A DNA stretch of 64,000 nt from Escherichia coli (GTDB lineage Bacteria; Pseudomonadota; Gammaproteobacteria; Enterobacterales; Enterobacteriaceae): assembly GCF_029227855.1 (NCBI RefSeq), contig NZ_CP074356.1; one strand, 5' to 3'. The translations under genes and the position numbers were made by a program. This document shows positions 1 through 40,936 of the stretch, piece by piece (the first letter of the stretch is position 1; every line of letters begins with the position of its first letter). The notes below the pieces were generated by a model, which ran no database searches, was not told where the DNA came from, and was given only the letters and a program-made list of their open reading frames with translations.

Positions 1-408
1 TCCGCGCCCATCATTATATTGATGCTCATTGCCGCCGCCTTACTGGTACGCCGGATGCGCTTGCTGGAAATGGGCGATGATACCGCGTGTGCGTTGGGCG
101 TCAGCGTCGAACGTTCGCGGCTGTTAATGATGCTGGTGGCAGTGGTGCTCACCGCTGCGGCAACGGCGCTTGCCGGGCCGATTTCCTTTATTGCTTTAGT
201 CGCGCCACACATTGCCCGGCGCATTAGCGGCACCGCTCGCTGGGGGCTGACCCAGGCGGCGCTGTGCGGGGCGTTGTTACTGCTGGCGGCCGATCTCTGC
301 GCCCAACAACTGTTTATGCCGTATCAACTTCCGGTTGGCGTCGTTACCGTCAGCCTCGGTGGTATTTACCTTATCGTCTTGTTAATTCAGGAGTCTCGCA
401 AAAAATGA
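1..408 (+). CDS. fepG: Ferric enterobactin ABC transporter permease FepG, C-terminal part (5' end outside window)
   Basis: ORF 19..408 is hydrophobic permease-like and ends ...LIVLLIQESRKK; its stop overlaps the fepC start (ATGA at 405-408); operon context fepG-fepC. Confidence 0.85.
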   Translation, partial: SAPIIILMLIAAALLVRRMRLLEMGDDTACALGVSVERSRLLMMLVAVVLTAAATALAGPISFIALVAPHIARRISGTARWGLTQAALCGALLLLAADLCAQQLFMPYQLPVGVVTVSLGGIYLIVLLIQESRKK

Positions 409-2350: not shown

Positions 2351-2520
2351 GGGGTATAACCTGAAAATGAGTCCAATAGGGGGAAATCTCCACGGCGCTC
2401 ACTTTACCAGTTGGTGAGAATTATCCGAAGCTGAAGTTTGTAAATTCCTTCCACTGAATGCAACATTCACTCTATTTAAGAGAAATATCCACCAAATCCA
2501 TAAATTAAATAAATGATAAA

Positions 2521-2550
2521 CCCATAATTATTTCCTGTAATTATGGGTTT
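2521..2550 (-). terminator. Candidate Rho-independent terminator downstream of entF
   Basis: Perfect 10-bp inverted repeat cccataatta/taattatggg with 7-nt loop; on the minus strand it is followed by a T-rich run, about 20 bp past the entF stop. Confidence 0.45.
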
Positions 2551-2565
2551 ATCGATAATATTAAT

Positions 2566-5500: not shown

Positions 5501-6447
5501 TGTGCTGCCAGTCGGGTTGCCAGTTCCGGCAGCGTTTCTTGTGCCGCAATGTGAATCCCCAACGGCAAAACGTTGAGCACGGGTCCGGTAGCCGTCAGCG
5601 CCGCCGAGCCCAGTCGACGCATAAAGATAAATCCGGCGGCGTAGTCCATGCGATTGCACAATCGCCCCAGCCACAAGGCTGCCAACGCAAGTGCTAAATC
5701 GGTACGCTGCACACCTGAAAGTTGCGTAGCCAGCTGGCGGAATTCCCCGTCGGTAAACTCCAGTTTCAGGCGCAGAATATCTGCCGAGACGCTGCGCCCC
5801 GGTAAAGGTGCCGGAGAAAGTGACGCGGGCGGCGGCAGTTGACGACGCTGTTCCGTCCAGAATGCCGCATCACGCTGCCAGGCTTCGCTTTCGCGGTATT
5901 GCTGGTACTCTTCCACGACATCAGCGAAAGGCGTAAACGGCGAAGCAGGCGTTGGTTCGCCACGCAGCCATGCGCAGTAAATATTGGCGATCTGGCGGGT
6001 AATGGCCGGGAAACTGAAGCCATCGACCAGCAAATGGTGATAACGCTGATACCAGTACCAGCGGTTATCTGCCACCTGAATGAGCTGATGAAAGACCAGC
6101 GGTTTGCCGCTGTCGGCACGTAGATTTTGCTGTAAATCCGCCTGCATTAATGCCCGCGCAGTACCGTGCGGATCAATGTTGGTTCGCAGGTCGATAATTT
6201 CTGGCAGTTCGAACGTCAGCGCATCATCGACCCACTGCCAGACTTCGCCGTTATCTTCCGTAAAACGCATCCGCAGCGTATCTGCTTGCGCTATTCCGGC
6301 AACCACCGCGCGGGCCAGTAGTGGCGCATCAACCTCTCCGGTTAACTCAACGTAATGCGCCACGCTCCAGGCGGAGGGTAAATCCGACAGTTTTTCTGCC
6401 ATCCAGATGCCGGGCTGTGCGGCGACCAAAGGTAAATGCTGGCTCAT
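2566..6447 (-). CDS. entF: Enterobactin nonribosomal peptide synthetase EntF (C-A-PCP-TE)
   Basis: 1293-aa ORF; adenylation motifs (FTSGSTGRPKG), PCP serine (GGHSLLAMK), thioesterase GYSLGG; matches remembered EntF length and N-terminus MSQHLPLVAAQPGIW. Confidence 0.96.
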   Translation of the reverse strand: MSQHLPLVAAQPGIWMAEKLSDLPSAWSVAHYVELTGEVDAPLLARAVVAGIAQADTLRMRFTEDNGEVWQWVDDALTFELPEIIDLRTNIDPHGTARALMQADLQQNLRADSGKPLVFHQLIQVADNRWYWYQRYHHLLVDGFSFPAITRQIANIYCAWLRGEPTPASPFTPFADVVEEYQQYRESEAWQRDAAFWTEQRRQLPPPASLSPAPLPGRSVSADILRLKLEFTDGEFRQLATQLSGVQRTDLALALAALWLGRLCNRMDYAAGFIFMRRLGSAALTATGPVLNVLPLGIHIAAQETLPELATRLAAQLKKMRRYQRYDAEQIVRDSGRAAGEEPLFGPVLNIKVFDYQLDIPGVQTQTHTLATGPVNDLELALFPDEHGDLSIEILANKQRYDEPTLIQHAERLKMLIAQFAADPALLCGDVDIMLPGEYVQLAQINATQVEIPETTLSALVAEQAAKTPHAPALVDASYQFSYREMREQVVALANLLRERGVKPGDSVAVALPRSVFLTLALHAIVEAGAAWLPLDTGYPDDRLKMMLEDARPSLLITTDDQLPRFADVPDLTSLCYNAPLTPQGSAPLKLSQPHHTAYIIFTSGSTGRPKGVMVGQTAIVNRLLWMQNHYPLTGEDVVAQKTPCSFDVSVWEFFWPFIAGAKLVMAEPEAHRDPLAMQQFFAEYGVTTTHFVPSMLAAFVASLTPQTARQNCATLKQVFCSGEALPADLCREWQQLTSVPLHNLYGPTEAAVDVSWYPAFGEELAQVRGSSVPIGYPVWNTGLRILDAMMHPVPPGVAGDLYLTGIQLAQGYLGRPDLTASRFIADPFAPGERMYRTGDVARWLDNGAVEYLGRSDDQLKIRGQRIELGEIDRVMQALPDVEQAVTHACVINQAAATGGDARQLVGYLVSQSGLPLDTTALQAQLRETLPPHMVPVVLLQLPQLPLSANGKLDRKALPLPELKAQAPGRAPKAGSETIIAAAFSSLLGCDVQDADADFFALGGHSLLAMKLAAQLSRQFTRQVTPGQVMVASTVAKLATIIDGEEDSSRRMGFETILPLREGNGPTLFCFHPASGFAWQFSVLSRYLDPQWSIIGIQSPRPNGPMQTAANLDEVCEAHLATLLEHQPHGPYYLLGYSLGGTLAQGIAARLRARGEQVAFFGLLDTWPPETQNWQEKEANGLDPEVLAEINREREAFLAAQQGSTSTELFTTIEGNYADAVRLLTTAHSVPFDGKATLFVAERTLQEGMNPERAWSPWIAELDIYRQDCAHVDIISPGAFEKIGPIIRATLNR

Positions 6448-6662
6448 TGTGCCTCCTGCAACTGGGTGAAATTCGCCGGTGTCAGAGTACGCCAGTGGGC
6501 TTCAAGCCACTGCTGGCAGGACGCCTGTGACTGCGGCTGACACACAACGACCCAGCCTGCCGGTAAGGCGCATTGTTGCGGCCACAGACTGAATTGCCCC
6601 TGCGCATTGCGCAAAATGTTAAACGCTCCCTGCGGATCATCGAAGGGATTACTGAATGCCAT
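6444..6662 (-). CDS. ybdZ: MbtH-like protein YbdZ
   Basis: 72-aa product MAFSNPFDDPQGAF...SLWPQ...; ATG at 6660-6662 (the ORF track begins two codons upstream at a TTG); 4-bp overlap with the entF start. Confidence 0.88.
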   Translation of the reverse strand: MAFSNPFDDPQGAFNILRNAQGQFSLWPQQCALPAGWVVVCQPQSQASCQQWLEAHWRTLTPANFTQLQEAQ

Positions 6663-6664
6663 AT

Positions 6665-7867
6665 TCAACTCCTGTCATGGAAAAGTGGTTGCCAGAGGTC
6701 GATTAGCCCCTGCATCAAGCCACCGCGCCAACAAAGCGCATCATGTCCGCCGTCAACCTGACGCCAGAAAATGGATTCTTTTATGGGGTGTAATTGCGCA
6801 TACAGCGCCTGATTGGCCCGCATGATCATCGGCTCGCGAATACCCGCTTCCAGCATAATGCGCAGACCTTCGGCGCTAACTTCACCAGCTTTAAGTTGCT
6901 CAAGTAAAACACCTTCTTGCTGCCCGCCCCGATGAGGCCACCAGTACGATCCTGACTGGCTTAATACACAGCCAAAGCGTTCAGGCCAGTGCAGTCCGGC
7001 ATACAGCGCGGAAAGTCCACCAAAACTCTGCCCGGCGACCACGGTGCGATCGGCGCGATCGCTAAAAGGGGCAATAGCTTTCACCAGGGGTAATAACTCT
7101 TGCTGTACTGCCAGCCAGAAATCCGCATTACACGGCAGTTCGTGGGCGCGGTGCGTGGTGTCAATAGCGTCGATCAACACATACACGGCGGGAGGAAGTT
7201 GCTGACGATGGGTCAACGAAGTCAGCACAGGCCAGACAGGCATACTCTGCGCCCAAAATTCGCCATCGAGCAAAACTGCCAGCGGGCGTTCTCCTGCTGT
7301 TGCATCGCCGGTGGTAAAAATCCATACACGGCGTGAATTTTTCAACCGCTCACTTTTCCAGATAATTTCTTTGGCAGGCGTTTCTGGCGCTTGCGGACAA
7401 TCCCATCCCGGTTGTAGGGGCGCTTGCGGCATTTCGAGTGCAGAAACAGCGTGCCCTCGCCCGCCTTTCCAGCTTTGTGGATTCAGCGGATCGGCTATCG
7501 CCTGGGGCAATAGTTTTCGCCAGCCTTCACGTAATTCGAGGCGATCGGGGGATGGTGCAGAAAAAATGTCATCGCGTTCGGTGGGAATAAAACAGTAGCT
7601 GCCGCGCCAGTTGGCATTAAGTTGTGTCGTCCACTGCCAGACGTTGGTACCTGCAATTCGCTGCATCGACTGGGGCTGGCTGTTCTGATGGTGATCGGTC
7701 ACACCAGTGATGTAGACCCATACGCGCTTTATCGTCGAGTATTCTTCAGAACCTTGGGGATCACGCCACCAGAAAGTGACCTCAAACATTTCGTCATTCA
7801 GACGCTGCCATTCCGGGCCATGTTTCGACTGCCACCAGCTCTCACTTCCTACTTTTAACGCCGTCAC
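6665..7867 (-). CDS. fes: Enterochelin esterase Fes
   Basis: 400-aa ORF MTALKVGSESWWQSKHGPEWQRL... with esterase GQSFGG motif; the first codon appears to be GTG. Confidence 0.93.
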   Translation of the reverse strand: MTALKVGSESWWQSKHGPEWQRLNDEMFEVTFWWRDPQGSEEYSTIKRVWVYITGVTDHHQNSQPQSMQRIAGTNVWQWTTQLNANWRGSYCFIPTERDDIFSAPSPDRLELREGWRKLLPQAIADPLNPQSWKGGRGHAVSALEMPQAPLQPGWDCPQAPETPAKEIIWKSERLKNSRRVWIFTTGDATAGERPLAVLLDGEFWAQSMPVWPVLTSLTHRQQLPPAVYVLIDAIDTTHRAHELPCNADFWLAVQQELLPLVKAIAPFSDRADRTVVAGQSFGGLSALYAGLHWPERFGCVLSQSGSYWWPHRGGQQEGVLLEQLKAGEVSAEGLRIMLEAGIREPMIMRANQALYAQLHPIKESIFWRQVDGGHDALCWRGGLMQGLIDLWQPLFHDRS

Positions 7868-7916
7868 ACCATAACCCCATGTTTACTGTGAAATTTTTCA
7901 TTGATTGCAGAAATAT

Positions 7917-7939
7917 ATTGATAATATTATTGATAACTA
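7917..7939. promoter_or_regulatory. Fur box-like site in the fes-fepA divergent promoter region
   Basis: attgataatattattgataacta contains GATAAT-type hexamer repeats resembling the Fur consensus; located between divergent iron-regulated genes. Confidence 0.55.
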
Positions 7940-8109
7940 TTTGCATTTGCAATAGCGTAATGGCGCGCCGTGGGAAGCGCGGACATTAATTAACCAACTG
8001 CACTGCGTGTCTTTCAGGATCAAAGGTTTTCGCGGTAGCGGGATGCGTCGTGTTGATGACGACCATGCCCGACAGTTGCAATTCGTGGCAAAAATGCAGG
8101 AATAAAACA

Positions 8110-10350
8110 ATGAACAAGAAGATTCATTCCCTGGCCTTGTTGGTCAATCTGGGGATTTATGGGGTAGCACAGGCACAAGAGCCAACCGATACTCCTGTTT
8201 CACATGACGATACCATTGTCGTTACCGCCGCCGAGCAGAACTTGCAGGCACCTGGCGTTTCGACCATCACCGCAGATGAAATCCGCAAAAACCCGGTTGC
8301 CCGCGATGTGTCGGAGATCATCCGTACCATGCCAGGCGTTAACCTGACCGGTAACTCCACCAGTGGTCAGCGTGGGAATAACCGACAGATTGATATTCGC
8401 GGCATGGGTCCGGAAAACACGCTGATTTTGATTGACGGCAAGCCGGTAAGCAGCCGTAACTCGGTGCGTCAGGGCTGGCGTGGCGAGCGCGATACCCGTG
8501 GTGATACCTCCTGGGTGCCACCTGAAATGATTGAACGTATTGAAGTTCTGCGTGGTCCGGCAGCTGCGCGTTATGGCAACGGCGCGGCGGGCGGCGTGGT
8601 TAACATCATTACCAAAAAAGGCAGTGGTGAGTGGCACGGCTCGTGGGACGCATATTTCAATGCGCCAGAACATAAAGAGGAAGGTGCCACCAAACGCACT
8701 AACTTTAGCCTCACCGGTCCGCTGGGCGACGAATTCAGCTTCCGCTTGTATGGCAACCTCGACAAAACTCAGGCTGACGCGTGGGATATCAACCAGGGCC
8801 ATCAGTCCGCGCGTGCCGGAACGTATGCCACGACGTTACCAGCCGGGCGCGAAGGGGTGATCAATAAAGATATTAACGGCGTGGTGCGCTGGGACTTCGC
8901 ACCATTACAATCGCTGGAACTGGAAGCAGGTTACAGCCGCCAGGGTAACCTGTATGCGGGCGATACCCAGAACACCAACTCTGACTCCTATACCCGCTCG
9001 AAATATGGCGATGAAACCAACCGTCTGTATCGCCAGAACTACTCGCTGACCTGGAACGGCGGCTGGGATAACGGCGTGACCACCAGCAACTGGGTGCAGT
9101 ACGAACACACCCGTAACTCGCGTATTCCGGAAGGTCTGGCGGGCGGTACCGAAGGGAAATTTAACGAAAAAGCGACACAGGATTTCGTCGATATCGATCT
9201 CGATGACGTGATGCTGCACAGCGAAGTTAACCTGCCGATTGATTTCCTCGTTAACCAGACGCTGACGCTGGGTACGGAGTGGAATCAGCAGCGGATGAAG
9301 GACTTGAGTTCCAACACCCAGGCGCTCACCGGGACGAATACCGGCGGCGCTATTGATGGCGTGAGTGCCACCGACCGTAGCCCGTATTCAAAAGCAGAAA
9401 TTTTCTCGCTGTTTGCCGAAAACAATATGGAGCTGACTGACAGCACCATCGTAACGCCGGGGCTGCGTTTCGATCATCACAGCATTGTTGGCAATAACTG
9501 GAGTCCGGCTCTAAACATATCGCAAGGTTTAGGCGATGACTTCACGCTGAAAATGGGCATTGCCCGTGCTTATAAAGCGCCGAGTCTGTACCAGACTAAC
9601 CCAAACTACATTCTCTACAGTAAAGGTCAGGGCTGCTATGCCAGCGCGGGCGGCTGCTATCTGCAAGGTAATGATGACCTGAAAGCGGAAACCAGCATCA
9701 ACAAAGAGATTGGTCTGGAGTTCAAACGCGACGGCTGGCTGGCGGGTGTGACCTGGTTCCGTAACGATTATCGCAATAAGATTGAAGCGGGCTATGTGGC
9801 TGTAGGGCAAAACGCAGTCGGCACCGATCTCTATCAGTGGGATAACGTACCGAAAGCGGTGGTTGAAGGTCTGGAAGGATCGTTAAACGTACCGGTTAGC
9901 GAAACGGTGATGTGGACCAATAACATCACTTATATGCTGAAGAGTGAAAACAAAACCACGGGCGACCGTTTGTCGATCATCCCGGAGTATACGTTGAACT
10001 CAACGCTGAGCTGGCAGGCACGGGAAGATTTGTCGATGCAAACAACCTTCACCTGGTACGGCAAGCAGCAGCCGAAGAAGTACAACTATAAAGGTCAGCC
10101 AGCGGTTGGACCGGAAACCAAAGAAATCAGTCCGTACAGCATTGTGGGTCTGAGCGCGACCTGGGATGTGACGAAGAATGTCAGTCTGACCGGCGGCGTG
10201 GACAACCTGTTCGACAAACGTTTGTGGCGTGCAGGTAATGCCCAGACCACGGGCGATCTGGCAGGAGCCAACTATATCGCCGGTGCCGGGGCGTATACCT
10301 ATAACGAGCCGGGACGTACGTGGTATATGAGCATTAATACTCACTTCTGA
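8110..10350 (+). CDS. fepA: TonB-dependent ferric enterobactin outer-membrane receptor FepA
   Basis: 746-aa product MNKKIHSLALLVNLGIYGVAQA..., TonB box DTIVVTA, C-terminal ...YMSINTHF; the ORF-track start at 8050 is an upstream extension. Confidence 0.96.
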   Translation: MNKKIHSLALLVNLGIYGVAQAQEPTDTPVSHDDTIVVTAAEQNLQAPGVSTITADEIRKNPVARDVSEIIRTMPGVNLTGNSTSGQRGNNRQIDIRGMGPENTLILIDGKPVSSRNSVRQGWRGERDTRGDTSWVPPEMIERIEVLRGPAAARYGNGAAGGVVNIITKKGSGEWHGSWDAYFNAPEHKEEGATKRTNFSLTGPLGDEFSFRLYGNLDKTQADAWDINQGHQSARAGTYATTLPAGREGVINKDINGVVRWDFAPLQSLELEAGYSRQGNLYAGDTQNTNSDSYTRSKYGDETNRLYRQNYSLTWNGGWDNGVTTSNWVQYEHTRNSRIPEGLAGGTEGKFNEKATQDFVDIDLDDVMLHSEVNLPIDFLVNQTLTLGTEWNQQRMKDLSSNTQALTGTNTGGAIDGVSATDRSPYSKAEIFSLFAENNMELTDSTIVTPGLRFDHHSIVGNNWSPALNISQGLGDDFTLKMGIARAYKAPSLYQTNPNYILYSKGQGCYASAGGCYLQGNDDLKAETSINKEIGLEFKRDGWLAGVTWFRNDYRNKIEAGYVAVGQNAVGTDLYQWDNVPKAVVEGLEGSLNVPVSETVMWTNNITYMLKSENKTTGDRLSIIPEYTLNSTLSWQAREDLSMQTTFTWYGKQQPKKYNYKGQPAVGPETKEISPYSIVGLSATWDVTKNVSLTGGVDNLFDKRLWRAGNAQTTGDLAGANYIAGAGAYTYNEPGRTWYMSINTHF

Positions 10351-30144: not shown

Positions 30145-33100
30145 ATGAGTGAAGGACCAGGCGGGCCACAGGGAGCGACCGCAGGCGGTACGCTGGCAAT
30201 GCGAATGCTGTCACAGCAGGCGATGGTCGCCAGCCAGATGAAACGGGCAGCCAACGACAAAGCCATTGCACAGATGCTGGCATCAAAAAAGTCCGGCCCC
30301 CCCGCCGCCAGGCTGGGCGATGAAATTCAGCACAAGAGTTTTTTGGGGGCGCTGGCAGGGGCCGTGCTGGGGGCGATAGTGACCATCGCAGAAGGTTGCC
30401 TGATTATGGCCGCCTGTGCCACCGGCCCTTATGCGCTGGTTCTGGTGCCTGCGCTGATGTATGCCAGCTATAAGGCGAGTGATTATGTGGAGGAGAAACA
30501 GAACCAGCTTGAATCATGGATAAACAGCTTTTGTGACACGGACGGCGCCATCAATACCGGTTCTGAAAATGTAAACATTAACGGAAAGCCCGCTGCCAGG
30601 GCCGCCGTCACCCTTCCCCCTCCTCCCCCACCTGGAGCAATACCTGAAATCCCACAGGGGGAACCCTCATGGGGTGATATTGCCACTGACCTGCTTGAAT
30701 CGGCAGCGGAAAAAGCAGTACCACTGGCGAAGGCCTGGGGGAACGCTGTTATCACCCTGACGGACAGCAATGCCGGTTTTATGGATCGCGTCAGCGCCGG
30801 CGCATCGCTTCTGTTTCCCGCCGGTCCGGTATTAATGGAGTTTGCCACCATGGTGGGCGGGCGTGGCGAAATCAAAAAAGATGTGGATTTCCCGGAAGCC
30901 GGTGAGGACACGGCGCTCTGCGACAAGGAGAACAAACCACCGAGGATAGCCCAGGGCAGCAGCAACGTCTTTATCAACAATCAGCCCGCCGCGCGCAAGG
31001 GCGACAAACTGGAGTGCAGCGCGGCAATCGTGGAAGGTTCGCCGGACGTCTTTATTGGCGGTGAACAGGTGACCTATCTGGATATCCAGCCAGAGTTCCC
31101 GCCGTGGCAGAGAATGATCCTGGGGGGAATAACGATAGCCAGCTATCTTCTGCCGCCAGCGGGACTGCTGGGAAAACTGAAGAATCTGGCGAGACTCGGC
31201 AAACTGGGGAACCTGCTGGGGAAAAGCGGGAAGCTGCTGGGGGCAAAGCTCGGCGCGTTGCTGGGAAAAACAGATAAGTCGTTAAAAAGTATTGCCAATA
31301 AAGTCATCAGATGGGTAACAGATCCTGTCGATCCGGTAACCGGCGCGTACTGCGACGAACGTACCGACTTTACGCTGGGCCAGACCCTCCCCCTCTCCTT
31401 CACCCGTTTCCACAGTTCTGTACTGCCGCTGCATGGCCTGACCGGCGTGGGCTGGAGCGACTCCTGGAGCGAATACGCCTGGGTGCGTGAACAGGGAAAC
31501 CGGGTGGATATCATCAGCCAGGGAGCCACGCTGAACTTCGCCTTCGACGGTGACAGTGATACGGCGGTTAACCCGTATCACGCCCAGTACATTCTGCGCC
31601 GCCGCGATGATTATCTGGAGCTGTTCGACAGGGATGCACTGAGCAGCCGCTTCTTTTATGACGCCTTTCCGGGAATGCGTCTGCGCCACCCGGTGACTGA
31701 CGATACCAGCGATGACCGCCTGGCACACAGCCCCAATGACCGGATGTACATGCTGGGCGGGATGAGCGACACCGCCAGCAACCGCATCACGTTTGAGCGC
31801 GACAGCCAGTACCGGATCACAGGTGTCAGTCACACCGACGGGATCCGGCTTAAACTGACGTACCACGCCAGCGGCTACCTGAAAGCCATTCACCGCACGG
31901 ATAACGGCATACAGACGCTGGCGACCTACGAACAGGATGCGCGGGGGCGGCTGACAGAAGCGGATGCGCGGCTGGACTACCACCTGTTTTATGAGTACGA
32001 CGCTGCGGACCGGATCATCCGCTGGTCCGATAACGACCAGACGTGGAGCCGTTTCACCTACGATGAACAGGGCCGGTGCGTGAATGTCACCGGGGCGGAG
32101 GGCTATTACAACGCCACGCTGGACTATGGTGACGGCTGCACCACCGTGACGGACGGCAAGGGCATTCACCGTTATTACTATGATCCTGACGGCAATATTC
32201 TGCGGGAAGCAGCGCCGGACGGCAGCACCACCACGTATGAATGGGATGAATTCCATCACCTGCTGGCCCGTCACTCCCCTGCCGGGCGGGTGGAGAAATT
32301 TGAATACAACGCCGCACACGGTCAGTTAAGCCGTTACACGGCGGCAGACGGCGCGGAGTGGCAGTACCGCTATGATGAGCGCGGCCTGCTCAGCAACATC
32401 ACCGACCCTGCCGGGCAGACGTGGACACAGCAGTGTGATGAACGCGGCCTGCCGGTAAGTCTGGTGTCGCCACAGGGCGAAGAGACCCGGCTGGCATACA
32501 CCGCTCAGGGGCTGCTGTCGGGAATATTCCGCCAGGATGAACGGCGTCTGGGCATAGAGTACGACCACCACAACCGGCCGGAAACACTCACCGACGTGAT
32601 GGGCCGTGAACACCACACCGAATACAGCGGTCACGACCTGCCGGTGAAGATGCGCGGCCCCGGCGGTCAGTCAGTGCGGTTGCAGTGGCAGCAGCACCAT
32701 AAACTGAGTGGCCTTGAGCGCACTGGCACCGGCGCGGAAGGGTTCAGCTATGACCGCCACGGCAACCTGCTGGCCTGGACGGACGGCAATGGTGTTGTCT
32801 GGACAATGGAGTACGGCCCGTTCGATTTGCCGGTGGCGCGAACGGACGGTGAAGGCCACCGCTGGCAGTACCGCTATGATAAAGACACGCTGCAACTGAC
32901 AGAAGTCATTAACCCGCAGGGTGAGTCATATCTTTATGTTCTGGATAACTGCGGCCGGGTGACGGAAGAGCATGACTGGGGCGGCGTGGTCTGGCGTTAC
33001 CGCTATGACGCCGATGGCCTGTGTACCGCCAGGGTCAACGGCCTGGAGGAAACCATCCTCTACAGCCGGGACGACGCAGGCCGCCTGGCAGAAGTCATCA

Positions 33101-34974
33101 CGCCGGAAGGCAAAACGCAGTATGCGTATGACAAATCCGGCAGGCTGACGGGTATCTTCAGCCCGGACGGCACATCACAGCGCACCGGCTATGACGAACG
33201 CGGGCGGGTGAATGTCACCACTCAGGGCCGACGGGCCATTGAATACCACTACCCCGATGAACACACCGTCATCCGCTGTATCCTGCCACCGGAAGATGAA
33301 CGCGACAGACACCCCGGTGAATCCCTGCTGAAAACCACGTACCGCTACAACGCAGCCGGAGAACTGGCAGAGGTCATCCTGCCGGAGGATGAGACGCTGA
33401 CGTTCAGCCGTGATGAGGCAGGACGTGAAGTGCTCCGGCACAGTAACCGGGGTTTTGCCTGTGAGCAGGGCTGGAATGCAGCCGGTCAGCTTACCAGCCA
33501 GCGCGCCGGACTTTTCCCGGCAGAAGCCACATGGGGCGGGCTGCTCCCCTCACTGGTACGGGAGTACCGTTACGACAGCGCGGGCAATGTGTCGGCTGTC
33601 ACCAGCCGGGAAGATTACGGACGGGAAACTCGCCGGGAGTACCGGCTGGACCGGAACGGCCAGGTCACGGCGGTGACAGCCTCAGGCACCGGGCTGGGCT
33701 ATGGCGAAGGCGATGAGTCCTATGGCTATGACAGTTGTGGCTACCTGAAGGCGCAGTCTGCGGGCAGGCACCGGATAAGTGAAGAGACTGAGCGGTATGC
33801 CGGAGGCCACCGGCTGAAACAGGCCGGAAACACGCAGTATGACTATGACGCCGCAGGCCGGATGGTCAGCCGCACCAGACACCGTAACGGCTATCGCCCG
33901 GAAACAGAGCGGTTCCGGTGGGACAGCCGGGACCAGCTGACCGGGTATTGCAGCGCACAGGGTGAACAGTGGGAATACCGCCACGACGCCAGCGGCAGAC
34001 GGACGGAAAAACGCTGCGACCGGAAGAAAATCCGCTTCACGTACCTGTGGGACGGCGACAGTATTGCGGAAATCCGGGAATACCGCGATGATAAACTGTA
34101 CAGCGTAAGGCACCTGGTGTTTAACGGCTTTGAGCTGATAAGCCAGCAGTTTAGCCGGGTACGGCAGCCGCACCCGTCCGTGGCCCCGCAGTGGGTGACG
34201 CGGACGAATCATGCGGTGAGCGATCTGACGGGCCGTCCGCTGATGCTCTTTAACAGTGAAGGTAAAACCGTCTGGCGACCGGGACAGACCAGCCTGTGGG
34301 GGCTGGCACTCAGCCTGCCCGCGGACACCGGCTACCCGGACCCGCGCGGGGAACTGGACGCGGAAGCCGACCCCGGCCTGCTGTATGCAGGACAGTGGCA
34401 GGATGCGGAATCCGGGCTGTGCTATAACCGGTTCCGGTATTACGAGCCGGAAACAGGGATGTACCTGGTGAGTGATCCGCTGGGGTTGCTGGGGGGTGAG
34501 CAGACTTACCGGTATGTGCCGAATCCGTGTGGGTATGTTGATCCTTTGGGATTAGCAACATGTCCCATAATCAGACAACGGGTGCTGGCTAACCTTGAAG
34601 CCAGTCGGGCAGCAAGGGCTGCATCTAATTTTGGTAAGAAAAATATCTATGATTTTATCAAGGCAACTCAATCTGCTATCCCTGGCACCTCTATCCCAAA
34701 ATCTTTTGAGATTATAACTGCTAATGGTACTTTCTGGGTACACCCAAATGCTACAAAACATATGGCTGAATATTTGACTCGGAACGGTCTCTCACATTCA
34801 ACTTCTGTAGAGAGCCAAATAATGTTAACAAGTTTTCACGAAGCTGTAAGTTTGGCTAGTGCTCAAGGTATAAAGTATGAAGAAATGATGAATGTTGGCG
34901 GCTGGGAACTAGTATTTAGTCAAGCTAAATCTGACTCGGCTTTATCAGTTATTAAACATGCTCTTTATAAATGA
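30145..34974 (+). CDS. prePAAR/PAAR-domain Rhs polymorphic toxin (T6SS effector) with variable C-terminal toxin domain
   Basis: 1609 aa; prePAAR motif AARLGDEIQH near the N-terminus with hydrophobic helices; PAAR-like segment (GDKLECSAAIVEGSPDVFIGGE); many YD/RHS repeats; PxxxxDPxGL core-end motif (NPCGYVDPLGL) followed by about 150 aa of divergent C-terminus. Confidence 0.9.
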   Translation: MSEGPGGPQGATAGGTLAMRMLSQQAMVASQMKRAANDKAIAQMLASKKSGPPAARLGDEIQHKSFLGALAGAVLGAIVTIAEGCLIMAACATGPYALVLVPALMYASYKASDYVEEKQNQLESWINSFCDTDGAINTGSENVNINGKPAARAAVTLPPPPPPGAIPEIPQGEPSWGDIATDLLESAAEKAVPLAKAWGNAVITLTDSNAGFMDRVSAGASLLFPAGPVLMEFATMVGGRGEIKKDVDFPEAGEDTALCDKENKPPRIAQGSSNVFINNQPAARKGDKLECSAAIVEGSPDVFIGGEQVTYLDIQPEFPPWQRMILGGITIASYLLPPAGLLGKLKNLARLGKLGNLLGKSGKLLGAKLGALLGKTDKSLKSIANKVIRWVTDPVDPVTGAYCDERTDFTLGQTLPLSFTRFHSSVLPLHGLTGVGWSDSWSEYAWVREQGNRVDIISQGATLNFAFDGDSDTAVNPYHAQYILRRRDDYLELFDRDALSSRFFYDAFPGMRLRHPVTDDTSDDRLAHSPNDRMYMLGGMSDTASNRITFERDSQYRITGVSHTDGIRLKLTYHASGYLKAIHRTDNGIQTLATYEQDARGRLTEADARLDYHLFYEYDAADRIIRWSDNDQTWSRFTYDEQGRCVNVTGAEGYYNATLDYGDGCTTVTDGKGIHRYYYDPDGNILREAAPDGSTTTYEWDEFHHLLARHSPAGRVEKFEYNAAHGQLSRYTAADGAEWQYRYDERGLLSNITDPAGQTWTQQCDERGLPVSLVSPQGEETRLAYTAQGLLSGIFRQDERRLGIEYDHHNRPETLTDVMGREHHTEYSGHDLPVKMRGPGGQSVRLQWQQHHKLSGLERTGTGAEGFSYDRHGNLLAWTDGNGVVWTMEYGPFDLPVARTDGEGHRWQYRYDKDTLQLTEVINPQGESYLYVLDNCGRVTEEHDWGGVVWRYRYDADGLCTARVNGLEETILYSRDDAGRLAEVITPEGKTQYAYDKSGRLTGIFSPDGTSQRTGYDERGRVNVTTQGRRAIEYHYPDEHTVIRCILPPEDERDRHPGESLLKTTYRYNAAGELAEVILPEDETLTFSRDEAGREVLRHSNRGFACEQGWNAAGQLTSQRAGLFPAEATWGGLLPSLVREYRYDSAGNVSAVTSREDYGRETRREYRLDRNGQVTAVTASGTGLGYGEGDESYGYDSCGYLKAQSAGRHRISEETERYAGGHRLKQAGNTQYDYDAAGRMVSRTRHRNGYRPETERFRWDSRDQLTGYCSAQGEQWEYRHDASGRRTEKRCDRKKIRFTYLWDGDSIAEIREYRDDKLYSVRHLVFNGFELISQQFSRVRQPHPSVAPQWVTRTNHAVSDLTGRPLMLFNSEGKTVWRPGQTSLWGLALSLPADTGYPDPRGELDAEADPGLLYAGQWQDAESGLCYNRFRYYEPETGMYLVSDPLGLLGGEQTYRYVPNPCGYVDPLGLATCPIIRQRVLANLEASRAARAASNFGKKNIYDFIKATQSAIPGTSIPKSFEIITANGTFWVHPNATKHMAEYLTRNGLSHSTSVESQIMLTSFHEAVSLASAQGIKYEEMMNVGGWELVFSQAKSDSALSVIKHALYK

Positions 34975-35504
34975 CGATTATGCTTACATTAGAAAATGAA
35001 ACAAACTACAAAGATGTTGTTGTTAATATAGATGAATTTGTACCTTTTGATATAACTTTTGGAAAGGGGAGCGAACAGTGTTTGTACTGGAGAGGCGGCA
35101 ATGGTAAAAGTTCTTTGGTTGAAGTTGGGTTAAATATGTACAGCGGAGAAGTAAGTAACATCACACTAGCAAATATCGATTCAGGTGAAATTAACATTAC
35201 AGATGAGATGTTAGCCAACAACCTTCCTGAAATACAAGGGTCTGTTATATTTCAGACAAGCGAGTGGCTTAATAAAGACATTTCCGAATACTCAAACAGA
35301 TTTATTGATGATTTTGATTGCAATATCAAGTTAATAATTGGTAGTAATTACATTAAATTATTATTTAAAAAAGCAACAAATCCCATTTGTTATATCATTA
35401 ATAGGAATATAAGATTTGGTTTTTCTTTGAGTAGGGAACTTTCGACATTGGAAATATTAGACCTCAATCAAGAAAAATTAGATATTCTAAAGTTATTTAA
35501 ATAG
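34971..35504 (+). CDS. Putative cognate immunity protein for the Rhs C-terminal toxin
   Basis: 177-aa ORF whose ATG overlaps the rhs stop (ATGA); markedly AT-rich; position typical of rhsI genes. Confidence 0.7.
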   Translation: MTIMLTLENETNYKDVVVNIDEFVPFDITFGKGSEQCLYWRGGNGKSSLVEVGLNMYSGEVSNITLANIDSGEINITDEMLANNLPEIQGSVIFQTSEWLNKDISEYSNRFIDDFDCNIKLIIGSNYIKLLFKKATNPICYIINRNIRFGFSLSRELSTLEILDLNQEKLDILKLFK

Positions 35505-35983
35505 TTTTAGTGTTTGAAACTTACCGAGAGATGATAGCTATGAATGAATACAAAAACATCCATCTTGGAGGAAACAATGGAATGTTAATCCATTAAAAAA
35601 CATACTTCAATATCTTTAGTGAAGAAAGAGTTGTATGAAAGAAATATATCTTATGTGAGCGACATGATGCATGCTAATTATATTATTGGCCGGAAATTTT
35701 ATGATGATAGCAAAAAGGAGGGGTTATTTCTGTAAGAATGGATATACCCGCAGGGTTTGAACCAGACATTTATTTGTTGAAGTCTAAGATCCAAATGGAA
35801 GCATTTATATCCCTCAGATATTATGCGTTGACGGGTTGATAAAGATACTTTTAGAGGGTTAATAAATGGAGAACGTATAATAAATCTCTTAAACAAACTA
35901 TAACCTGTACTAATGAAAAAAATGGGAATAGATAAGTTAATAGCCTATTCTAAAAATGGTAAAGTGGTTTTACTTCCAAAATA

Positions 35984-36427
35984 ATGGAGTTTAGTATGAA
36001 AATCGAAGCTAATTCCCTTACTCATCCCTATGACTACAACGCCTCACTGAACAATTATTTACATTATTTTGAGAATTTCTCTCGTAATGACTGGAATAAA
36101 GATTCATGTGGAGGATATTTTACTTTTAGAGATGATGACAGAGAGTGTGTTTTGTTTTTTGTGAATTATGGTGATAATTTTTCATTGCGCTATGATTGTA
36201 CACAAAGTTCTGATGGAATAGTGTCATGCTGGTATAGTAACCATGAAGATGATAAAATGAATATCATCGTCGATGCTGATACAGAACAATTTATCCCTTT
36301 AGGTTCTTGCTTACCTCCTGATATTACTTTATCAGTAATAAAAGATTTTTTCAAAAATCCTTTAGAGAAATCAAAAAAAGTAAAATGGATGAATGCAGAT
36401 GACATTGACTGGTCATCTGTGTATTAA
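35984..36427 (+). CDS. Hypothetical protein, possible orphan immunity gene
   Basis: 147-aa ORF in AT-rich DNA downstream of the toxin/immunity pair; no recognisable motif. Confidence 0.4.
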   Translation: MEFSMKIEANSLTHPYDYNASLNNYLHYFENFSRNDWNKDSCGGYFTFRDDDRECVLFFVNYGDNFSLRYDCTQSSDGIVSCWYSNHEDDKMNIIVDADTEQFIPLGSCLPPDITLSVIKDFFKNPLEKSKKVKWMNADDIDWSSVY

Positions 36428-37318
36428 AGTTGGATTGGATAATTATCTGTTTCAAAAATCATTAAATTTAGAACCTATCTGTTCAACAGAGCTGCCTTGA
36501 ACAGCAGGTTCTTTTATGATGTCCAGGAGCGAATATGCCTGTGATGTCTGGCACTCAGCATCTGACTGACCTGGACTACTGATCCTACTCACACAGGGAG
36601 CTAGACCTGGAAGCAACCTACTGTAAGCAGTGCAGTAGCAGCCCACCTCACATCAGTCCTTGCAAGGTGTGGGCCTTTGTGATCTTGCTCTGTATTGCTG
36701 AGATCCTCAGGAAGGACTCGAAATTTAATCAGGAAGGCCGTTGCTAAAAATCAAAAAATAAATTCAAGAGCAATTTCTAAAACTTTTGAATCTACTGTAT
36801 CGGATGAGGTTTTCACTCCTTTCCAAAAGGTGAGTTTTCAAGCATTCAAGTTTCTGTTATGACCAAAACTTCACCATTTAACACTAATCCGAGTATTATG
36901 TTACCATGAAGAAAAAAGATATTAGATTTGCAATATCCATTAACTCCAACTCAAGTAAGATAGAATTAATGGAAAAATTAAAAACATAATCCCAGGGCTT
37001 ATTGAAATAACTCCCAGTGCATTAAGAGAAGAAAAAACATGGTAGTTATTGAAGATAATGATCTTTATGACTCTATAAAAGCAGAGGGAGTTGATGGATG
37101 GATGTATTATAAATTCATATTATCCATATTCCCATTAAAGGGAGTAGACACAACATTAGAATATCAACGGAAATTATCTTTTCTTTTCTTAAAGAAATTA
37201 AAAGATGCGGGTCTGTTAGGTGAACTTATATGCGAGGATGATTTTCATGACTGATGACCTCTACATATATCCTCAGTTCGTGGCTGGTATTACATGATCT
37301 GACAGGGAAAGATCGTAG

Positions 37319-37613
37319 CGAAATCAAAAAAGACGTGGATTTCCCGGAAGCCGGTGAAGACACGGCGCTCTGCGACAAGGAGACTAAACCGCCGAGGATA
37401 GCCCAGGGCAGCAGCAACGTTTTTATCAACAATCAGCCTGCCGCACGCCAGGGAGACAAACTGGAGTGCAGTGCGGCGATCGTGGAAGGTTCGCCGGACG
37501 TCTTTATTGGGGGTGAGCAGGTCACCTATCTGGATATCCAGCCGGAGTTCCCGCCGTGGCAGAGAATGATCCTGGGGGGAATAACGATAGCCAGCTATCT
37601 TCTGCCGCCAGCG
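37319..37613 (+). pseudogene. Duplicated fragment of the Rhs PAAR-domain region
   Basis: 295 bp nearly identical to 30867-31161 of the full-length rhs gene; encodes EIKKDVDFPEAGEDTALCDK...ITIASYLLPPA inside ORF 37254..37631; lacks the N-terminus and core. Confidence 0.85.
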
Positions 37614-37750
37614 CAGGGAAAGATCACGTAACGCTGCTTTTTTGTACTAAATAATTCGCACTAAATGTTCAATAATTGAGATATTCCTTATTACCTAAAT
37701 ACAGTTCCACCAAGATTACCTAAACCCAAATGAGGTAAAAGATAGTGGGT

Positions 37751-38112
37751 ATGAATAAAAATGAAATCCATTTCCCTATAGGATATGGTTGGTTGAATGA
37801 AAAAAAATTATTGGCACCAGTGAATTTAGCCAATTAGAACCATGGTTTTATCTAGATGAGAACAGGTGTTTTTTTGCGAATAAAAAATGGCCAAATGTCA
37901 TAGGTGAACAATTATTCGCTTTTGCTAAACGTCAAGATAATGATGAATTGGCTTGTTTCAAAATTAATGAATCTGGAGTCTGTGAGGGTGTTTATTTAAT
38001 TAATGGGTGGACTCCTAACGGGTTTGATATTATACAATTTTACCCTGATTTTTGGGAATGGGTACATTTGGTTATACAAGATGTCTCGGAGTGGATTGAT
38101 AATAAAGGATAA
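37751..38112 (+). pseudogene. Frameshifted small gene (immunity-protein-like) with an A8 tract at the frame switch
   Basis: ATG at 37751 reads 27 codons to a stop; a shifted frame from about 37813 continues for 99 codons to TAA at 38110-38112; the shift coincides with gaaaaaaaatt at 37798-37808. Confidence 0.45.
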
Positions 38113-38141: not shown

Positions 38142-38840
38142 TTGAAGGTAACGTGGAGTGGTGGGCGGAGCAGCCTGCCCGCAGACACAGACTACCCGGA
38201 CCCGCGCGGGGAGCGGGACGCGGAAGCCGACCCCGGCCTGCTGTATGCAGGACAGTGGCAGGATGCGGAATCCGGACTGTGCTATAACCGGTTCCGGTAT
38301 TACGAGCCGGAAACCGGGATGTACCTGGTGAGTGATCCCCTGGGGTTGCTGGGGGGTGAGCAGACTTACCGGTATGTGCCTAATCCTAGTGGGTATGTTG
38401 ATCCTCTGGGATTAGCAACGTGTCCTATACTCAGACAGTGGGCGCTGACTAACCTTGAAGCCAGTCGGGCAGCAAGGGCTGCATCTAATTTTGGTAAGCC
38501 TCTGGTCCAGCGAAATAAAACGATTGGCGATAAAGTAAGGGATATGATTGCCAAAGAGAGGGGAACCACTCTAATTGAACAAAATTATAGAGTGACAGGA
38601 GGATTAAAGCGTATTGACGTTGTTGATGGAGTAACGGGTATAGAATCTAAAGTCGATCGAACAGGGTTAACAACCCGAGTACGGCAAGAGGTAGCGCGGG
38701 ATATTAAGATTTTGAGAAGTGAGCAACTTGATCAAATTGAATGGGTGTTTACAAGAAGTTCAACTACAGGGAAGATTGGGCCAACTAAACCACTTGAAGA
38801 TCTTTTAAATAAACATGGTATACCGATTATTTATCGATAA
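38142..38840 (+). CDS. Orphan Rhs C-terminal fragment: core end (DPxGL) plus alternative C-terminal toxin domain, candidate PD-(D/E)xK nuclease
   Basis: 38171-38498 nearly identical to 34311-34638 of the full rhs; the C-terminal domain diverges after ...AASNFGK; contains RIDVVDG...GIESK; the ORF begins at TTG and has no PAAR or core of its own. Confidence 0.7.
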   Translation: MKVTWSGGRSSLPADTDYPDPRGERDAEADPGLLYAGQWQDAESGLCYNRFRYYEPETGMYLVSDPLGLLGGEQTYRYVPNPSGYVDPLGLATCPILRQWALTNLEASRAARAASNFGKPLVQRNKTIGDKVRDMIAKERGTTLIEQNYRVTGGLKRIDVVDGVTGIESKVDRTGLTTRVRQEVARDIKILRSEQLDQIEWVFTRSSTTGKIGPTKPLEDLLNKHGIPIIYR

Positions 38841-38851
38841 GGAGTGATAGT

Positions 38852-39409
38852 GTGAAACTCAAACCGATTGGTGACTTTTTAAACAAAAATGGGTTTATAA
38901 AAAATGGTAACAATGATTTTTATAAAGTTCATGATAAGTTTGTAAATTGTATAAATTTTCAAAAAAAGAGTACAGGTGATATTTTTTTTATAAACACAGG
39001 TGTTCATCCTGTGTTCGAAAATTTTTGCAATGAACCACCGAAAAAAGAAATAGATTGTTACATCCGTAACCGTGTGTGTGATGGACTAAGTATATCTTTG
39101 CTGCATTCTTTTGAAGGTAGTGAGTTTGTTATCAGTGAGATAAAAAACAAAGCGTTTTGTTTTTTTGAATACTTTGATTCATTGAATAAAATATTCGATG
39201 CTATTCGTGTTGTAGATATTGAAGAGAGAAATATTTGCGATGAGCTAAGTGGTGTAAGCAGCGTAAGATTAGCTTTGATGTGTATGAACTACCAGTATGA
39301 GAAAAAAAAATTTAGCCTTGTTTCTGATTTTGCGAACTATGGTCTTGCTATATCTAGAGGCCCGGTACCGAAAAAAGCATTTAAGGATATGATAAAAATA
39401 ACAGAGTGA
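38852..39409 (+). CDS. Putative immunity protein for the orphan Rhs C-terminal toxin
   Basis: 185-aa AT-rich ORF with GTG start 11 bp after the orphan toxin stop and GGAG upstream. Confidence 0.6.
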   Translation: MKLKPIGDFLNKNGFIKNGNNDFYKVHDKFVNCINFQKKSTGDIFFINTGVHPVFENFCNEPPKKEIDCYIRNRVCDGLSISLLHSFEGSEFVISEIKNKAFCFFEYFDSLNKIFDAIRVVDIEERNICDELSGVSSVRLALMCMNYQYEKKKFSLVSDFANYGLAISRGPVPKKAFKDMIKITE

Positions 39410-39434: not shown

Positions 39435-39646
39435 GCCTGTGTACCGCGAAGATTAACGGCCGGGAGGAAACTATTCTCTACAACCGGGACGCCACAGGCC
39501 GCCTGGCAGAAGTCATCACGCCGGAAGGCAAAACGCAGTATGCGTATGACAAATCCGGCAGGCTGACGGGTATCTTCAGCCCGGACGACACATCACAGCG
39601 CACCGGCTATGAAGAACGCGGGCGGGTGAATGTCACCACTCAGGGC
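39435..39646 (+). pseudogene. Internal Rhs core fragment
   Basis: About 210 bp at roughly 90% identity to 33018-33228 of the full-length rhs; truncated at both ends, abutting the ISAs1 left end. Confidence 0.8.
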
Positions 39647-40936
39647 AGGGAAAGATCATCCAAAGTACACTTTTTGTACTAAATAATTCGCATTTTATGT
39701 TTAAAAATGGAGATATTCCTCATTACCTAAAGCTGTTTTTTATTGCTTATACATGATCAAATACTCCTTACATAATTAAGGAGAACAAAATGGAACTTAA
39801 AAAATTGATGGAACATATTTCTATTATCCCCGATTACAGACAAGCCTGGAAAGTGGAACATAAATTATCGGATATTCTGCTGTTGACTATTTGTGCCGTT
39901 ATTTCGGGTGCAGAAGGCTGGGAAGATATAGAGGATTTTGGGGAAACACATCTCGATTTTTTGAAGCAATATGGTGATTTTGATAATGGTATTCCTGTTC
40001 ACGATACCATCGCCAGAGTTATATCCTGTATCAGTCCTTCAAAATTTCACGAGTGTTTTATTAACTGGATGCGAGATTGCCATACTTCAGATGATAAAGA
40101 CGTCATCGCAATTGATGGAAAAACACTCCGGCATTCTTATGACAAGAGTCGCCGCAAGGGAGCGATTCATGTCATTAGTGCGTTCTCAACAATGCACAGT
40201 CTGGTCATCGGACAGATCAGGACGGATGAGAAATCCAATGAAATTACAGCTATCCCTGAACTTCTTAACATGCTGGATATTAAAGGAAAAATCATCACAA
40301 CTGATGCGATGGGTTGCCAGAAAGATATTGCAGAGAAGATACAAAAACAGGGCGGTGATTATTTATTCGCTGTAAAAGGAAACCAGGGGCGGCTAAATAA
40401 AGCCTTCGAGGAAAAATTTCCGCTGAAAGAATTAAATAATCCAGAGCATGACAGTTACGCCATTAGTGAAAAGAGTCACGGCAGAGAAGAAATCCGTCTT
40501 CATATTGTTTGCGATGTCCCTGATGAACTTATTGATTTCACGTTTGAATGGAAAGGACTGAAGAAATTATGCGTGGCAGTCTCTTTTCGGTCAATAATAG
40601 CAGAACAAAAGAAAGAGCCAGAAATGACGGTCAGATATTATATCAGTTCTGCTGATTTAACCGCAGAGAAGTTCGCCACAGCAATCCGAAACCACTGGCG
40701 CGTGGAGAATAAGCTGCACTGGCGTCTGGACGTGGTAATGAATGAAGACGACTGCAAAATAAGAAGAGGAAACGCCGCAGAATTATTTTCAGGGATACGG
40801 CACATCGCTATTAATATTTTAACGAATGATAAGGTATTCAAGGCAGGGTTAAGACGTAAGATGCGAAAAGCAGCCATGGACAGAAACTATCTCGCGTCAG
40901 TCCTTGCGGGGAGCGGGCTTTCGTAATCTTGCCCTG
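39646..40936 (+). mobile_element. ISAs1-family insertion sequence (H-repeat element), about 1.29 kb
   Basis: Imperfect terminal inverted repeats CAGGGAAAGATCA (39646-39658) and TAATCTTGCCCTG (40924-40936); single transposase ORF; inserted in rhs-derived sequence. Confidence 0.75.
39790..40926 (+). CDS. ISAs1-family transposase (H-repeat-associated protein, YhhI/YdcC-like)
   Basis: 378-aa [55 protein letters not shown]...; the stop codon lies inside the right inverted repeat. Confidence 0.88.

Follow-up and report, generated by a model that had tools for sequence, protein, structure and literature searches.

A CpG-depleted rhs relic and probable junction scar in a vgrG-linked orphan-toxin array of Escherichia coli

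The segment and its place in the array

Positions 36470 to 36720 of the 64,000-nucleotide stretch of Escherichia coli DNA analyzed here (contig NZ_CP074356.1; the whole stretch is referred to as the window) lie in a vgrG/PAAR-linked rhs locus of the type VI secretion system that carries an orphan-toxin array. Within this locus the segment stands between an immunity gene and the truncated tail of a displaced toxin gene (Table 1). A sequence-only reading had singled it out as a stretch of balanced composition inside AT-rich DNA with no plus-strand open reading frame (ORF) of 60 amino acids (aa) or more, and both descriptions were borne out: G+C content is 50.6% in the segment and 31% in each of its flanks (35500 to 36469 and 36721 to 37250), and the only plus-strand ORFs that overlap it are those of 35 and 55 aa. 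The true right-hand discontinuity, however, lies at 36692 and not at 36720. We consider it very probable that the segment is a pseudogene mosaic, a nonfunctional junction scar of 223 bp (the relic) within the vgrG-linked array, in which decayed pieces of rhs core are joined to the terminus of an insertion sequence (IS).

Table 1. Features in and around the relic (window positions; nt, nucleotides)
Feature	Position	Strand	Remarks
Final 82 nt of a displaced gene for an Rhs C-terminal toxin (MafB19-like cytosine deaminase)	35903..35984	+	Remainder of toxin deleted in the window
imm_A2, orphan immunity gene that pairs with the MafB19-like deaminase toxin	35984/35996..36427	+	From gene order and homology
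ORF, 35 aa	36393-36500	+	Overlaps 36470-36720
AT-rich spacer	36428..36478		Salmonella module homologous only as far as the stop codon of the immunity gene (36425)
ORF, 64 aa, GTG start	36452-36646	-	No Pfam match
Interrupted 15-bp hairpin, followed by TTTTAT	36470..36512	+	Lies 43 nt past the stop codon of the immunity gene
Piece A, rhs core fragment (rhs ORF nt 1477-1516, '...LFDRDALSSRFFYD')	36479..36518	+	Matches window 31621-31660
Piece B, decayed rhs core 3' end (rhs ORF nt 4129-4257, '...WRPGQTSLWGLALSLPADTGYPDPRGELDAEADPGLLYAGQWQ')	36517..36641	+	Matches window 34273-34401
Piece C, right terminus of an ISAs1-family (ISEc1/H-rpt-like) IS	36643..36692	+	Includes terminal inverted repeat 36680-36692
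Truncated 3' tail of displaced Rhs toxin gene CT_B, nucleotidyltransferase-like	36692..36908	+	From GF43 collinearity; frameshifted in the window
ORF, 55 aa	36695-36862	+	Overlaps 36470-36720; no Pfam match
Immunity gene of CT_B, imm_B	36905..37254	+	Frameshifted in the window

Three pieces together account for 36479 to 36692 almost completely, and for each of them the match to its rhs or IS counterpart is the best in the whole window on either strand. Their z scores were derived from dinucleotide-preserving shuffles of each piece searched over the whole 64-kb window on both strands, with transition-tolerant or standard (+2/-3) scoring. Piece A is identical to its rhs counterpart at 32 of 40 positions (z of 9.4 with transition-tolerant and 6.7 with standard scoring) and translates as LFNRAALNSRFFYD where Rhs has LFDRDALSSRFFYD. 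An extension of piece A to 36560, aligned with 31621 to 31702, was superseded by the better contiguous alignment that constitutes piece B. The latter comprises 84 identities, 22 GC>AT and 3 AT>GC transitions, 9 to 15 transversions, and 12 to 18 gap columns (z of 11.1 and 3.1, respectively); it aligns likewise to the rhs copies in four of the compared loci (L002, L005, L011, and L012), and for a subquery within it (36555 to 36650) the paralogous orphan copy at 38184 to 38261 is the second-best match. The rhs reading frame is interrupted by in-frame TAA and TAG stops and by frameshifting indels that are not multiples of three. Pieces A and B match all of the rhs copies examined, and the relic differs by about 29% from every one of these. 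Reverting its GC>AT transitions brings the pieces to about 90 to 95% identity with this rhs subfamily and with ends of the ISEc1 type.

Piece C is identical at 38 of 50 positions to the end of the ISEc1 copy in the window (40887 to 40936) and at 40 of 50 to an ISAs1-type copy on an Enterobacter plasmid (z of 12.2 with transition-tolerant and 9.9 with standard scoring). Its terminal 13-mer, CAGAGCAAGATCA (36692 to 36680, minus strand), has no mismatch to CAGRGNAAGATYA, as is true of three other IS ends in the window, where this pattern has 8 matches against 0.8 expected. Little else of the element is left: a tblastn search with the ISEc1 transposase matched only the last 10 residues at piece C, a left inverted repeat was not found within the segment or the spacer, and there is no transposase gene, second inverted repeat, or target-site duplication. 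Only the last ~50 bp remain of a full IS. Strain GF43 is collinear with the window from exactly 36692 on, at 95.9% identity and inside an intact 4.9-kb Rhs coding sequence (CDS). Since the IS terminus and the start of this collinearity share base 36692, the boundary is a genuine element/target junction.

The position and state of the relic are those of an rhs remnant. It has core homology and lies downstream of an rhs gene of full length along with an immunity gene and upstream of a pair of displaced toxin and immunity genes. It does not have the makeup of a functional orphan, as the rhs homology ends at '...AGQWQ', the frame is broken, and no DPxGL motif is fused in frame to a toxin. The core-end motif DPxGL is missing from the segment because the IS end takes its place; about 390 nt, including this motif and the 5' part of the toxin, have been replaced in this way. 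The G+C content of 51% is explained by an rhs core of about 61% G+C that has partly decayed through GC>AT-biased mutation and lies between AT-rich toxin/immunity modules. The suggestion that the segment might be a relic or a recombination site was right in spirit, the relic being a junction scar between displaced toxin/immunity modules, but its description as foreign DNA was not, as decayed rhs core and an ISAs1-family terminus are both native components of such loci. The sequence-only reading had also named what would overturn it, namely, that the segment be part of a known protein-coding gene without conserved structure; in degraded form, that is essentially what it is.

As side features of its sequence, the 223 bp contain three Dcm sites (CCWGG), at 36523, 36570, and 36606. 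Two of them fall within a repeated 8-mer, GACCTGGA (36568 and 36604), and both are derived from CGCGG-type rhs sequence. CTAG occurs once, at 36601.

Of 5426 complete E. coli genomes, 167 carry the segment, always on the chromosome, never annotated, and in single copy except for one genome that has it in two places. In about 30 of the relic-bearing genomes it is cut at 36606 by an IS3 insertion. In all five relic-bearing E. coli loci that were fetched and in four metagenome contigs, the relic lies in the same block (35903 to 37613) together with imm_A2. Scans of 100,044 species genomes with two exact patterns, a 27-mer from the relic interior and a 22-mer from the IS end, gave no matches, and the metagenome scan yielded only the four contigs, all with the same E. 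coli block. Distant blastn searches returned only two ISAs1 ends from the plasmid collection and, from the E. coli genomes, ISAs1 ends at 81% identity with no closer rhs or IS relative. Downstream of the imm_A2 homologue in Salmonella there was no less-decayed copy of the relic, and homology stopped at the stop codon. As an object in itself the segment is of little importance, one more unannotated scar in a kind of locus where displaced toxin fragments and IS debris are already familiar, and it should not be annotated as an RNA gene.

The surrounding genes are consistent with such an array. The RefSeq annotation of strain AR_0067, which carries identical DNA, gives the order VgrG, a DcrB-like or related (EagR-type) protein, a 4.8-kb Rhs, small hypothetical proteins, a PAAR fragment, an Rhs fragment, an ISAs1 transposase, and nfrB/nfrA. 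In the window the main Rhs gene is an intact ORF of 1609 aa (30145 to 34974). The main Rhs gene of AR_0067 (L001, 2706 to 7535), a strain identical to the window over 321 compared bases around the relic, carries a pseudogene annotation, with an internal stop.

To the left of the relic, the 82-nt toxin remnant is collinear, at 96% identity, with positions 3464 to 3545 of L005, where the full Rhs CDS of E. coli 90-9280 ends. The C-terminal toxin region (CT) of that protein matches PF14437 (MafB19-deam; E value of 4.3e-13), and its HAE and RYTCPNC motifs show that HxE and CxxC are intact; HxE and +xxCxxC are also what characterizes the MafB19 clade of Iyer. A sequence search of the PDB with the deaminase CT found nothing relevant. 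The gene imm_A2 lies directly 3' of the full Rhs-MafB19 CDS in 90-9280 and directly 3' of a full Rhs in the metagenome contigs, and its Salmonella homologue, 70% identical, lies directly 3' of a PF14437 ORF. The same pair has been named Rhs-MafB19 and its immunity protein in an earlier report (bioRxiv 10.1101/2024.03.05.583533). In the window imm_A2 ends 43 nt before the segment (36470) and 52 bp before the first rhs-derived base of the relic (36479). Upstream of the 82-nt remnant, about 400 AT-rich nucleotides (35505 to 35902) separate it from the first immunity gene; they contain no plus-strand ORF of more than 38 aa and have no match in any of the compared loci.

To the right, 36692 to 36908 can be assigned to the 3' tail of the displaced toxin gene CT_B because the intact Rhs CDS of GF43 is collinear from 36692 on; the CT of GF43 matches PF01909. 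The neighboring imm_B is broken in the window by four 1-nt indels (36817, 36901, 36972, and 37031), whereas it is an intact ORF of 116 aa in GF43 and in L004 and one of 104 aa, with a 5-nt deletion, in L005. Further ISAs1-like sequence lies beyond this pair. The 13-mer CAGGGAAAGATCG (37303 to 37315), left-end-like and with 1 mismatch to the ISAs1 end consensus, stands precisely where the PAAR-domain rhs fragment has its 5' junction, with rhs sequence immediately after it, and could be a second IS-mediated breakpoint. Directly 3' of the PAAR fragment is a truncated ISAs1 left end (37614 to 37699), which is 81% identical to the ISEc1 left end at 39641 to 39731, and the full ISEc1 (39641 to 40936) interrupts a further rhs core fragment (39435 to 39646).

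Decay of the relic and erasure of CpG

The relic holds a single CpG in 223 bp at 51% G+C, an observed-to-expected ratio (o/e) of 0.07, with TpG at 1.74 and CpA at 1.43, and no other 200-nt stretch of the 64-kb window is so depleted of CpG. All 22 to 23 ancestral CpGs, as judged from the rhs and IS counterparts, have been lost, nearly always through one transition each (CG>TG or CG>CA). GC>AT transitions affect 46% of the G/C sites in CpG but 29% of other G/C sites, and a context-free simulation with the observed substitution frequencies left 14 CpGs where 1 is observed, a value never reached in 20,000 runs (P < 5e-5). Overall, the relic has about 35 GC>AT and about 6 AT>GC transitions; about 20 of its roughly 55 substitutions are not of the deaminase type, and there are indels besides. 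Apart from CpG, the spectrum (a transition-to-transversion ratio of about 3:1, a per-site GC>AT bias of about 3-fold, and 8 to 12% transversions plus indels) is as expected of old neutral enterobacterial DNA. Complete erasure of CpG is unusual in bacterial DNA of 51% G+C. It resembles methyl-CpG decay or the footprint of a deaminase, and its cause is possibly related to a deaminase.

The border of the depleted patch helps to date it. To the right of 36692, 19 of the 19 CpGs shared with GF43 (36692 to 37466) are intact, the nearest of them 27 bp away, and CpG o/e in the neutral PAAR fragment is 0.99. Together with a post-junction divergence of about 1.5 to 4%, these intact CpGs indicate that decay predates the IS/toxin junction, and they rule out decay in situ after the junction had formed. 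The block occurs as two haplotypes that are about 3% apart; inside the relic they differ by 3 to 4 single-nucleotide polymorphisms per 223 bp (1.3 to 1.8%), all of them transitions, which is not above the flanks. Ongoing hypermutation is ruled out by this low divergence, and the decay of about 29% is therefore older than the haplotype split as well as the junction. A single, kataegis-like deamination event can also be rejected: C>T changes are intermingled with G>A changes (about 16 runs by hand count against about 18 expected), so one event on one strand cannot explain them.

CpG content was also recorded elsewhere. In the AT-rich toxin/immunity stretch from 34560 to 37254, o/e is 0.38 to 0.68, and in other AT-rich parts of the window it is about 0.9 to 1.5. 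The orphan CT and immunity gene at 38480 to 39409 are not depleted (1.0 to 1.1), and the deaminase and immunity genes of Salmonella have values of 0.63 to 0.72.

Proposed history and alternative readings

These observations can be accommodated by the import of a block that comprised the 3' core of an rhs gene, the MafB19 toxin and immunity genes, the spacer, an old relic of rhs, and an ISAs1 element. The left crossover of this block would have fallen in the rhs core, and its right junction would have arisen when the IS end inserted into CT_B, the resident toxin gene. The rhs remnant itself has an internal deletion of 2.6 kb, joining ORF nt ~1516 to ~4129, and is cut after '...AGQWQ' by the IS end. 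The homologies, the exact IS/target junction, the pseudogene state, the single-copy distribution, and the loss of CpG are direct observations. From them we infer that the relic was already decayed before it joined the toxin tail and that it arrived with the MafB19-deaminase toxin/immunity module; an IS-mediated event presumably formed the right-hand junction, after which the body of the IS would have been deleted to leave the surviving ~50 bp. The relic is of use for dating and ordering the rearrangements that the vgrG-rhs array underwent in ST405, O121, and related E. coli lineages: its exact IS/target junction and the abrupt change in divergence point to the import of an old fragment, already decayed, along with the deaminase module.

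Several observations weigh against this interpretation. The relic is about 29% diverged from all examined rhs copies, but the adjoining toxin tail differs by only 3 to 4% from its GF43 counterpart; a relic that simply decayed in place is incompatible with these values, and a step of import or mobilization in trans must therefore be assumed. Neither a less-decayed copy of the relic nor an intact IS with this end was found among the E. coli genomes, plasmids, species genomes, and metagenomes. Finally, some room is left for selected structure: the minus strand of the whole segment folds with a z of -2.6 relative to dinucleotide shuffles, and the hairpin at 36470 to 36512 (-16.4 kcal/mol) has z values of -3.0 on the plus strand and -3.7 on the minus strand.

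With regard to the loss of CpG, the explanation that survives best, although we hold it only tentatively and at somewhat less than even odds, is long decay in another, probably enterobacterial, lineage that loses CpG fast, followed by import of the block with the deaminase module. CpG methylation or another CpG-directed bias could have been the cause in that lineage, and the left crossover could have lain in the rhs core and the right junction at the ISAs1 end. The transversions (about 8 to 12%) and indels speak for real age, and the identity restored by reverting GC>AT transitions, about 90 to 95%, ties the pieces to the present rhs subfamily and to ISEc1-type ends. Decay halts exactly at the IS terminus, with the 19 CpGs beyond it intact, and is older than a junction that has since diverged by about 1.5 to 4%. 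In addition, imm_A2 accompanies the relic in every relic-bearing locus or contig fetched, and the low CpG o/e of 34560 to 37254 (0.38 to 0.68) compares with about 1.0 where the window is AT-rich elsewhere. On the other side, the two pattern scans of the 100,044 species genomes disclosed no donor, the metagenome matches all represent the same E. coli block, and the Salmonella homologue of the module is without the relic. We know of no enterobacterial genome with a CpG o/e near 0.07, which also counts against a donor of this kind.

A second explanation, which we regard as unlikely but worth stating, is that the erasure is the footprint of the adjoining MafB19-family Rhs cytosine deaminase, whose chronic leakage, through intoxication of the producing cell or its siblings, would have converted CpG to TpG or CpA in unconstrained DNA traveling with it. 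The immunity gene that ends 52 bp left of the relic is that of an Rhs-MafB19 deaminase whose HxE and CxxC motifs are intact. All 22 to 23 CpGs were lost by about one transition each, 1 remains where 14 are expected (P < 5e-5), and GC>AT outnumber AT>GC transitions by ~35 to 6. An in vitro screen reported CpG specificity on double-stranded DNA for some deaminases and stated that "MafB19 deaminases tend to prefer Cg" (bioRxiv 10.1101/2023.06.29.547047), a preference at the level of the family, and deaminase toxins have been found to mutagenize surviving cells (PMC7901873). However, the "MafB19" of the screen is the Iyer profile and explicitly not Pfam PF14437 (10.1101/2023.06.29.547047), the substrate of the E. 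coli Rhs-MafB19 effectors has been called elusive (bioRxiv 10.1101/2024.03.05.583533), and mutations induced by DddA are dispersed rather than clustered (PMC7901873). Within the locus, the interspersed C>T and G>A changes exclude a single event, about 20 of the ~55 substitutions and the indels are not of deaminase type, CpGs have survived at a distance of 27 bp and in the neutral PAAR fragment, and a lineage that retains the toxin shows no GC>AT excess. The link between the CpG loss and the adjacent deaminase module is circumstantial. If it were true, the relic would be genomic evidence of an interbacterial deaminase toxin shaping sequence over evolutionary time and an in vivo readout of the sequence preference of the toxin. 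In any case, a relic beside the module of a CpG-preferring deaminase family offers a cheap and testable hypothesis on toxin-driven mutagenesis in nature.

The segment was also considered as a functional RNA. The inverted repeats that had been pointed out exist, CTGTTCAA (36479) with TTGAACAG (36497) and CTACTG (36618) with CAGTAG (36633), and the description of the segment as rich in hairpins holds for 36470 to 36512, where structure exceeds chance, but not for the rest. The inner arms of this hairpin were inherited from a palindrome, itself imperfect, of the rhs core. In the small hairpins at 36479 to 36504 and 36618 to 36638, G>A changes relative to the rhs core turned G.T positions of the ancestral imperfect palindrome into A-T and so made the repeats perfect, which may be due to chance.

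That the segment or its first hairpin has a function, either as a Rho-independent terminator of the rhs-immunity operon or as a small structured RNA on the minus strand, seems to us improbable. The stability of the hairpin at 36470 to 36512 (-16.4 kcal/mol; z of -3.0), the UUUUAU that follows it, and its position 43 nt past the immunity stop codon suit a terminator, and the minus-strand fold of the segment (z of -2.6) and the A-T pairs gained in both small hairpins would fit a structured RNA. A terminator scan nevertheless made no call at this hairpin, because its loop has 10 nt and its T-run is short (4 U); the stem, although stable, is AU-rich, with only UUUUAU behind it. The whole segment folds no better on the plus strand than its shuffles (z of -0.5). 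An Rfam covariance scan of 35500 to 37800 at a permissive E value gave nothing below an E of 1, the best match having an E of 2, with scores of 11 to 20 bits against gathering thresholds of 37 to 167. No promoter-like site was found within the segment, no Pfam family matched the 64-aa minus-strand or the 55-aa plus-strand ORF, and the IS3 insertion at 36606 splits the segment in about 30 genomes. Just 4 sites are polymorphic among strains, which is too few for covariation to show, and no relatives were found outside E. coli in the species-genome and metagenome scans. The proposal of a structured RNA is not supported, in view of the Rfam result, the plus-strand fold, and the descent of the hairpin arms from imperfect palindromes of the rhs core, and a weak terminator after the immunity gene, formed by the hairpin at 36470 to 36512, may be the only plausible residual activity of the scar.

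A nonautonomous ISAs1 derivative resembling a miniature inverted-repeat transposable element (MITE), which captured rhs fragments and transposed into the toxin gene, would explain why decay halts at the terminal base of the IS, and the right end is a perfect match to the 13-mer consensus of the family at an exact element/target junction. We nonetheless give this very little credence: neither the segment nor the spacer has a left inverted repeat, and there is one copy per genome, with no other location in the 5426 E. coli genomes, the plasmids, the species genomes, or the metagenomes. Copy number thus largely refutes a MITE, which would have two inverted repeats, a target duplication, and multiple copies, where the segment has one inverted repeat and a single copy per genome. 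Capture of vertebrate DNA by E. coli, to which the vertebrate-like dinucleotides (CpG, 0.07; TpG, 1.74; CpA, 1.43) of the most CpG-depleted 200 nt in the window might point, has next to no chance of being correct and is refuted by the three highly significant rhs and ISAs1-terminus matches that cover 36479 to 36692 almost fully.

Comparison with known systems

As a junction scar, the relic has clear precedents. Jackson et al. (2009; PMC2935791) described rhs gene relics and degenerate displaced fragments, Poole et al. (2011; PMC3150448) described orphan toxin fragments disrupted by ISs in the analogous cdiA-CT arrays, and both reports belong with the C-terminal displacement model. Like the displaced orphans and relics in these reports, the segment sits between an immunity gene and an older toxin/immunity pair, comes from the 3' end of the rhs core, and is untranslatable because of stops and frameshifts. 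It is unlike the other core fragments of the same locus, which are 3 to 10% diverged, in its divergence of about 29%, and unlike other displaced rhs fragments in being internally deleted and specifically stripped of CpG.

The IS portion can be compared with the defective H-rpt/ISEc1 copies of the ISAs1 family in the Rhs elements of E. coli. It shares with them a terminal fragment that has the CAGRG.AAGAT.A end of the family and the company, in the same rhs locus, of a full ISEc1 (39641 to 40936) and a truncated left end (37614 to 37699). Terminal remnants of ISAs1 elements have long been known in Rhs elements. The present one differs from known ISEc1/H-rpt ends in that it comprises only about 50 bp, is 20 to 24% diverged, has had every CpG replaced, and could not be traced to an intact element.

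Neither CpG methylation nor repeat-induced point mutation (RIP) is known in E. coli. As in vertebrate methyl-CpG decay, fungal RIP, APOBEC kataegis, and the mutagenesis caused by DddA and SsdA (PMC7901873), GC>AT changes dominate and affect both strands. As in deamination footprints, CpG is saturated with one change per dinucleotide, TpG and CpA are raised, and the border of the patch is sharp. The changes are not strand coordinated, unlike those of kataegis; they are clustered and CpG specific, unlike those of known toxin mutagenesis, which are dispersed over the genome and occur in the 5' contexts TC and YCY; and about one-third of them are not C>T, unlike a pure deamination footprint. The segment thus belongs to a known class, that of rhs gene relics and displaced fragments, and its CpG-specific signature is the unexpected feature.

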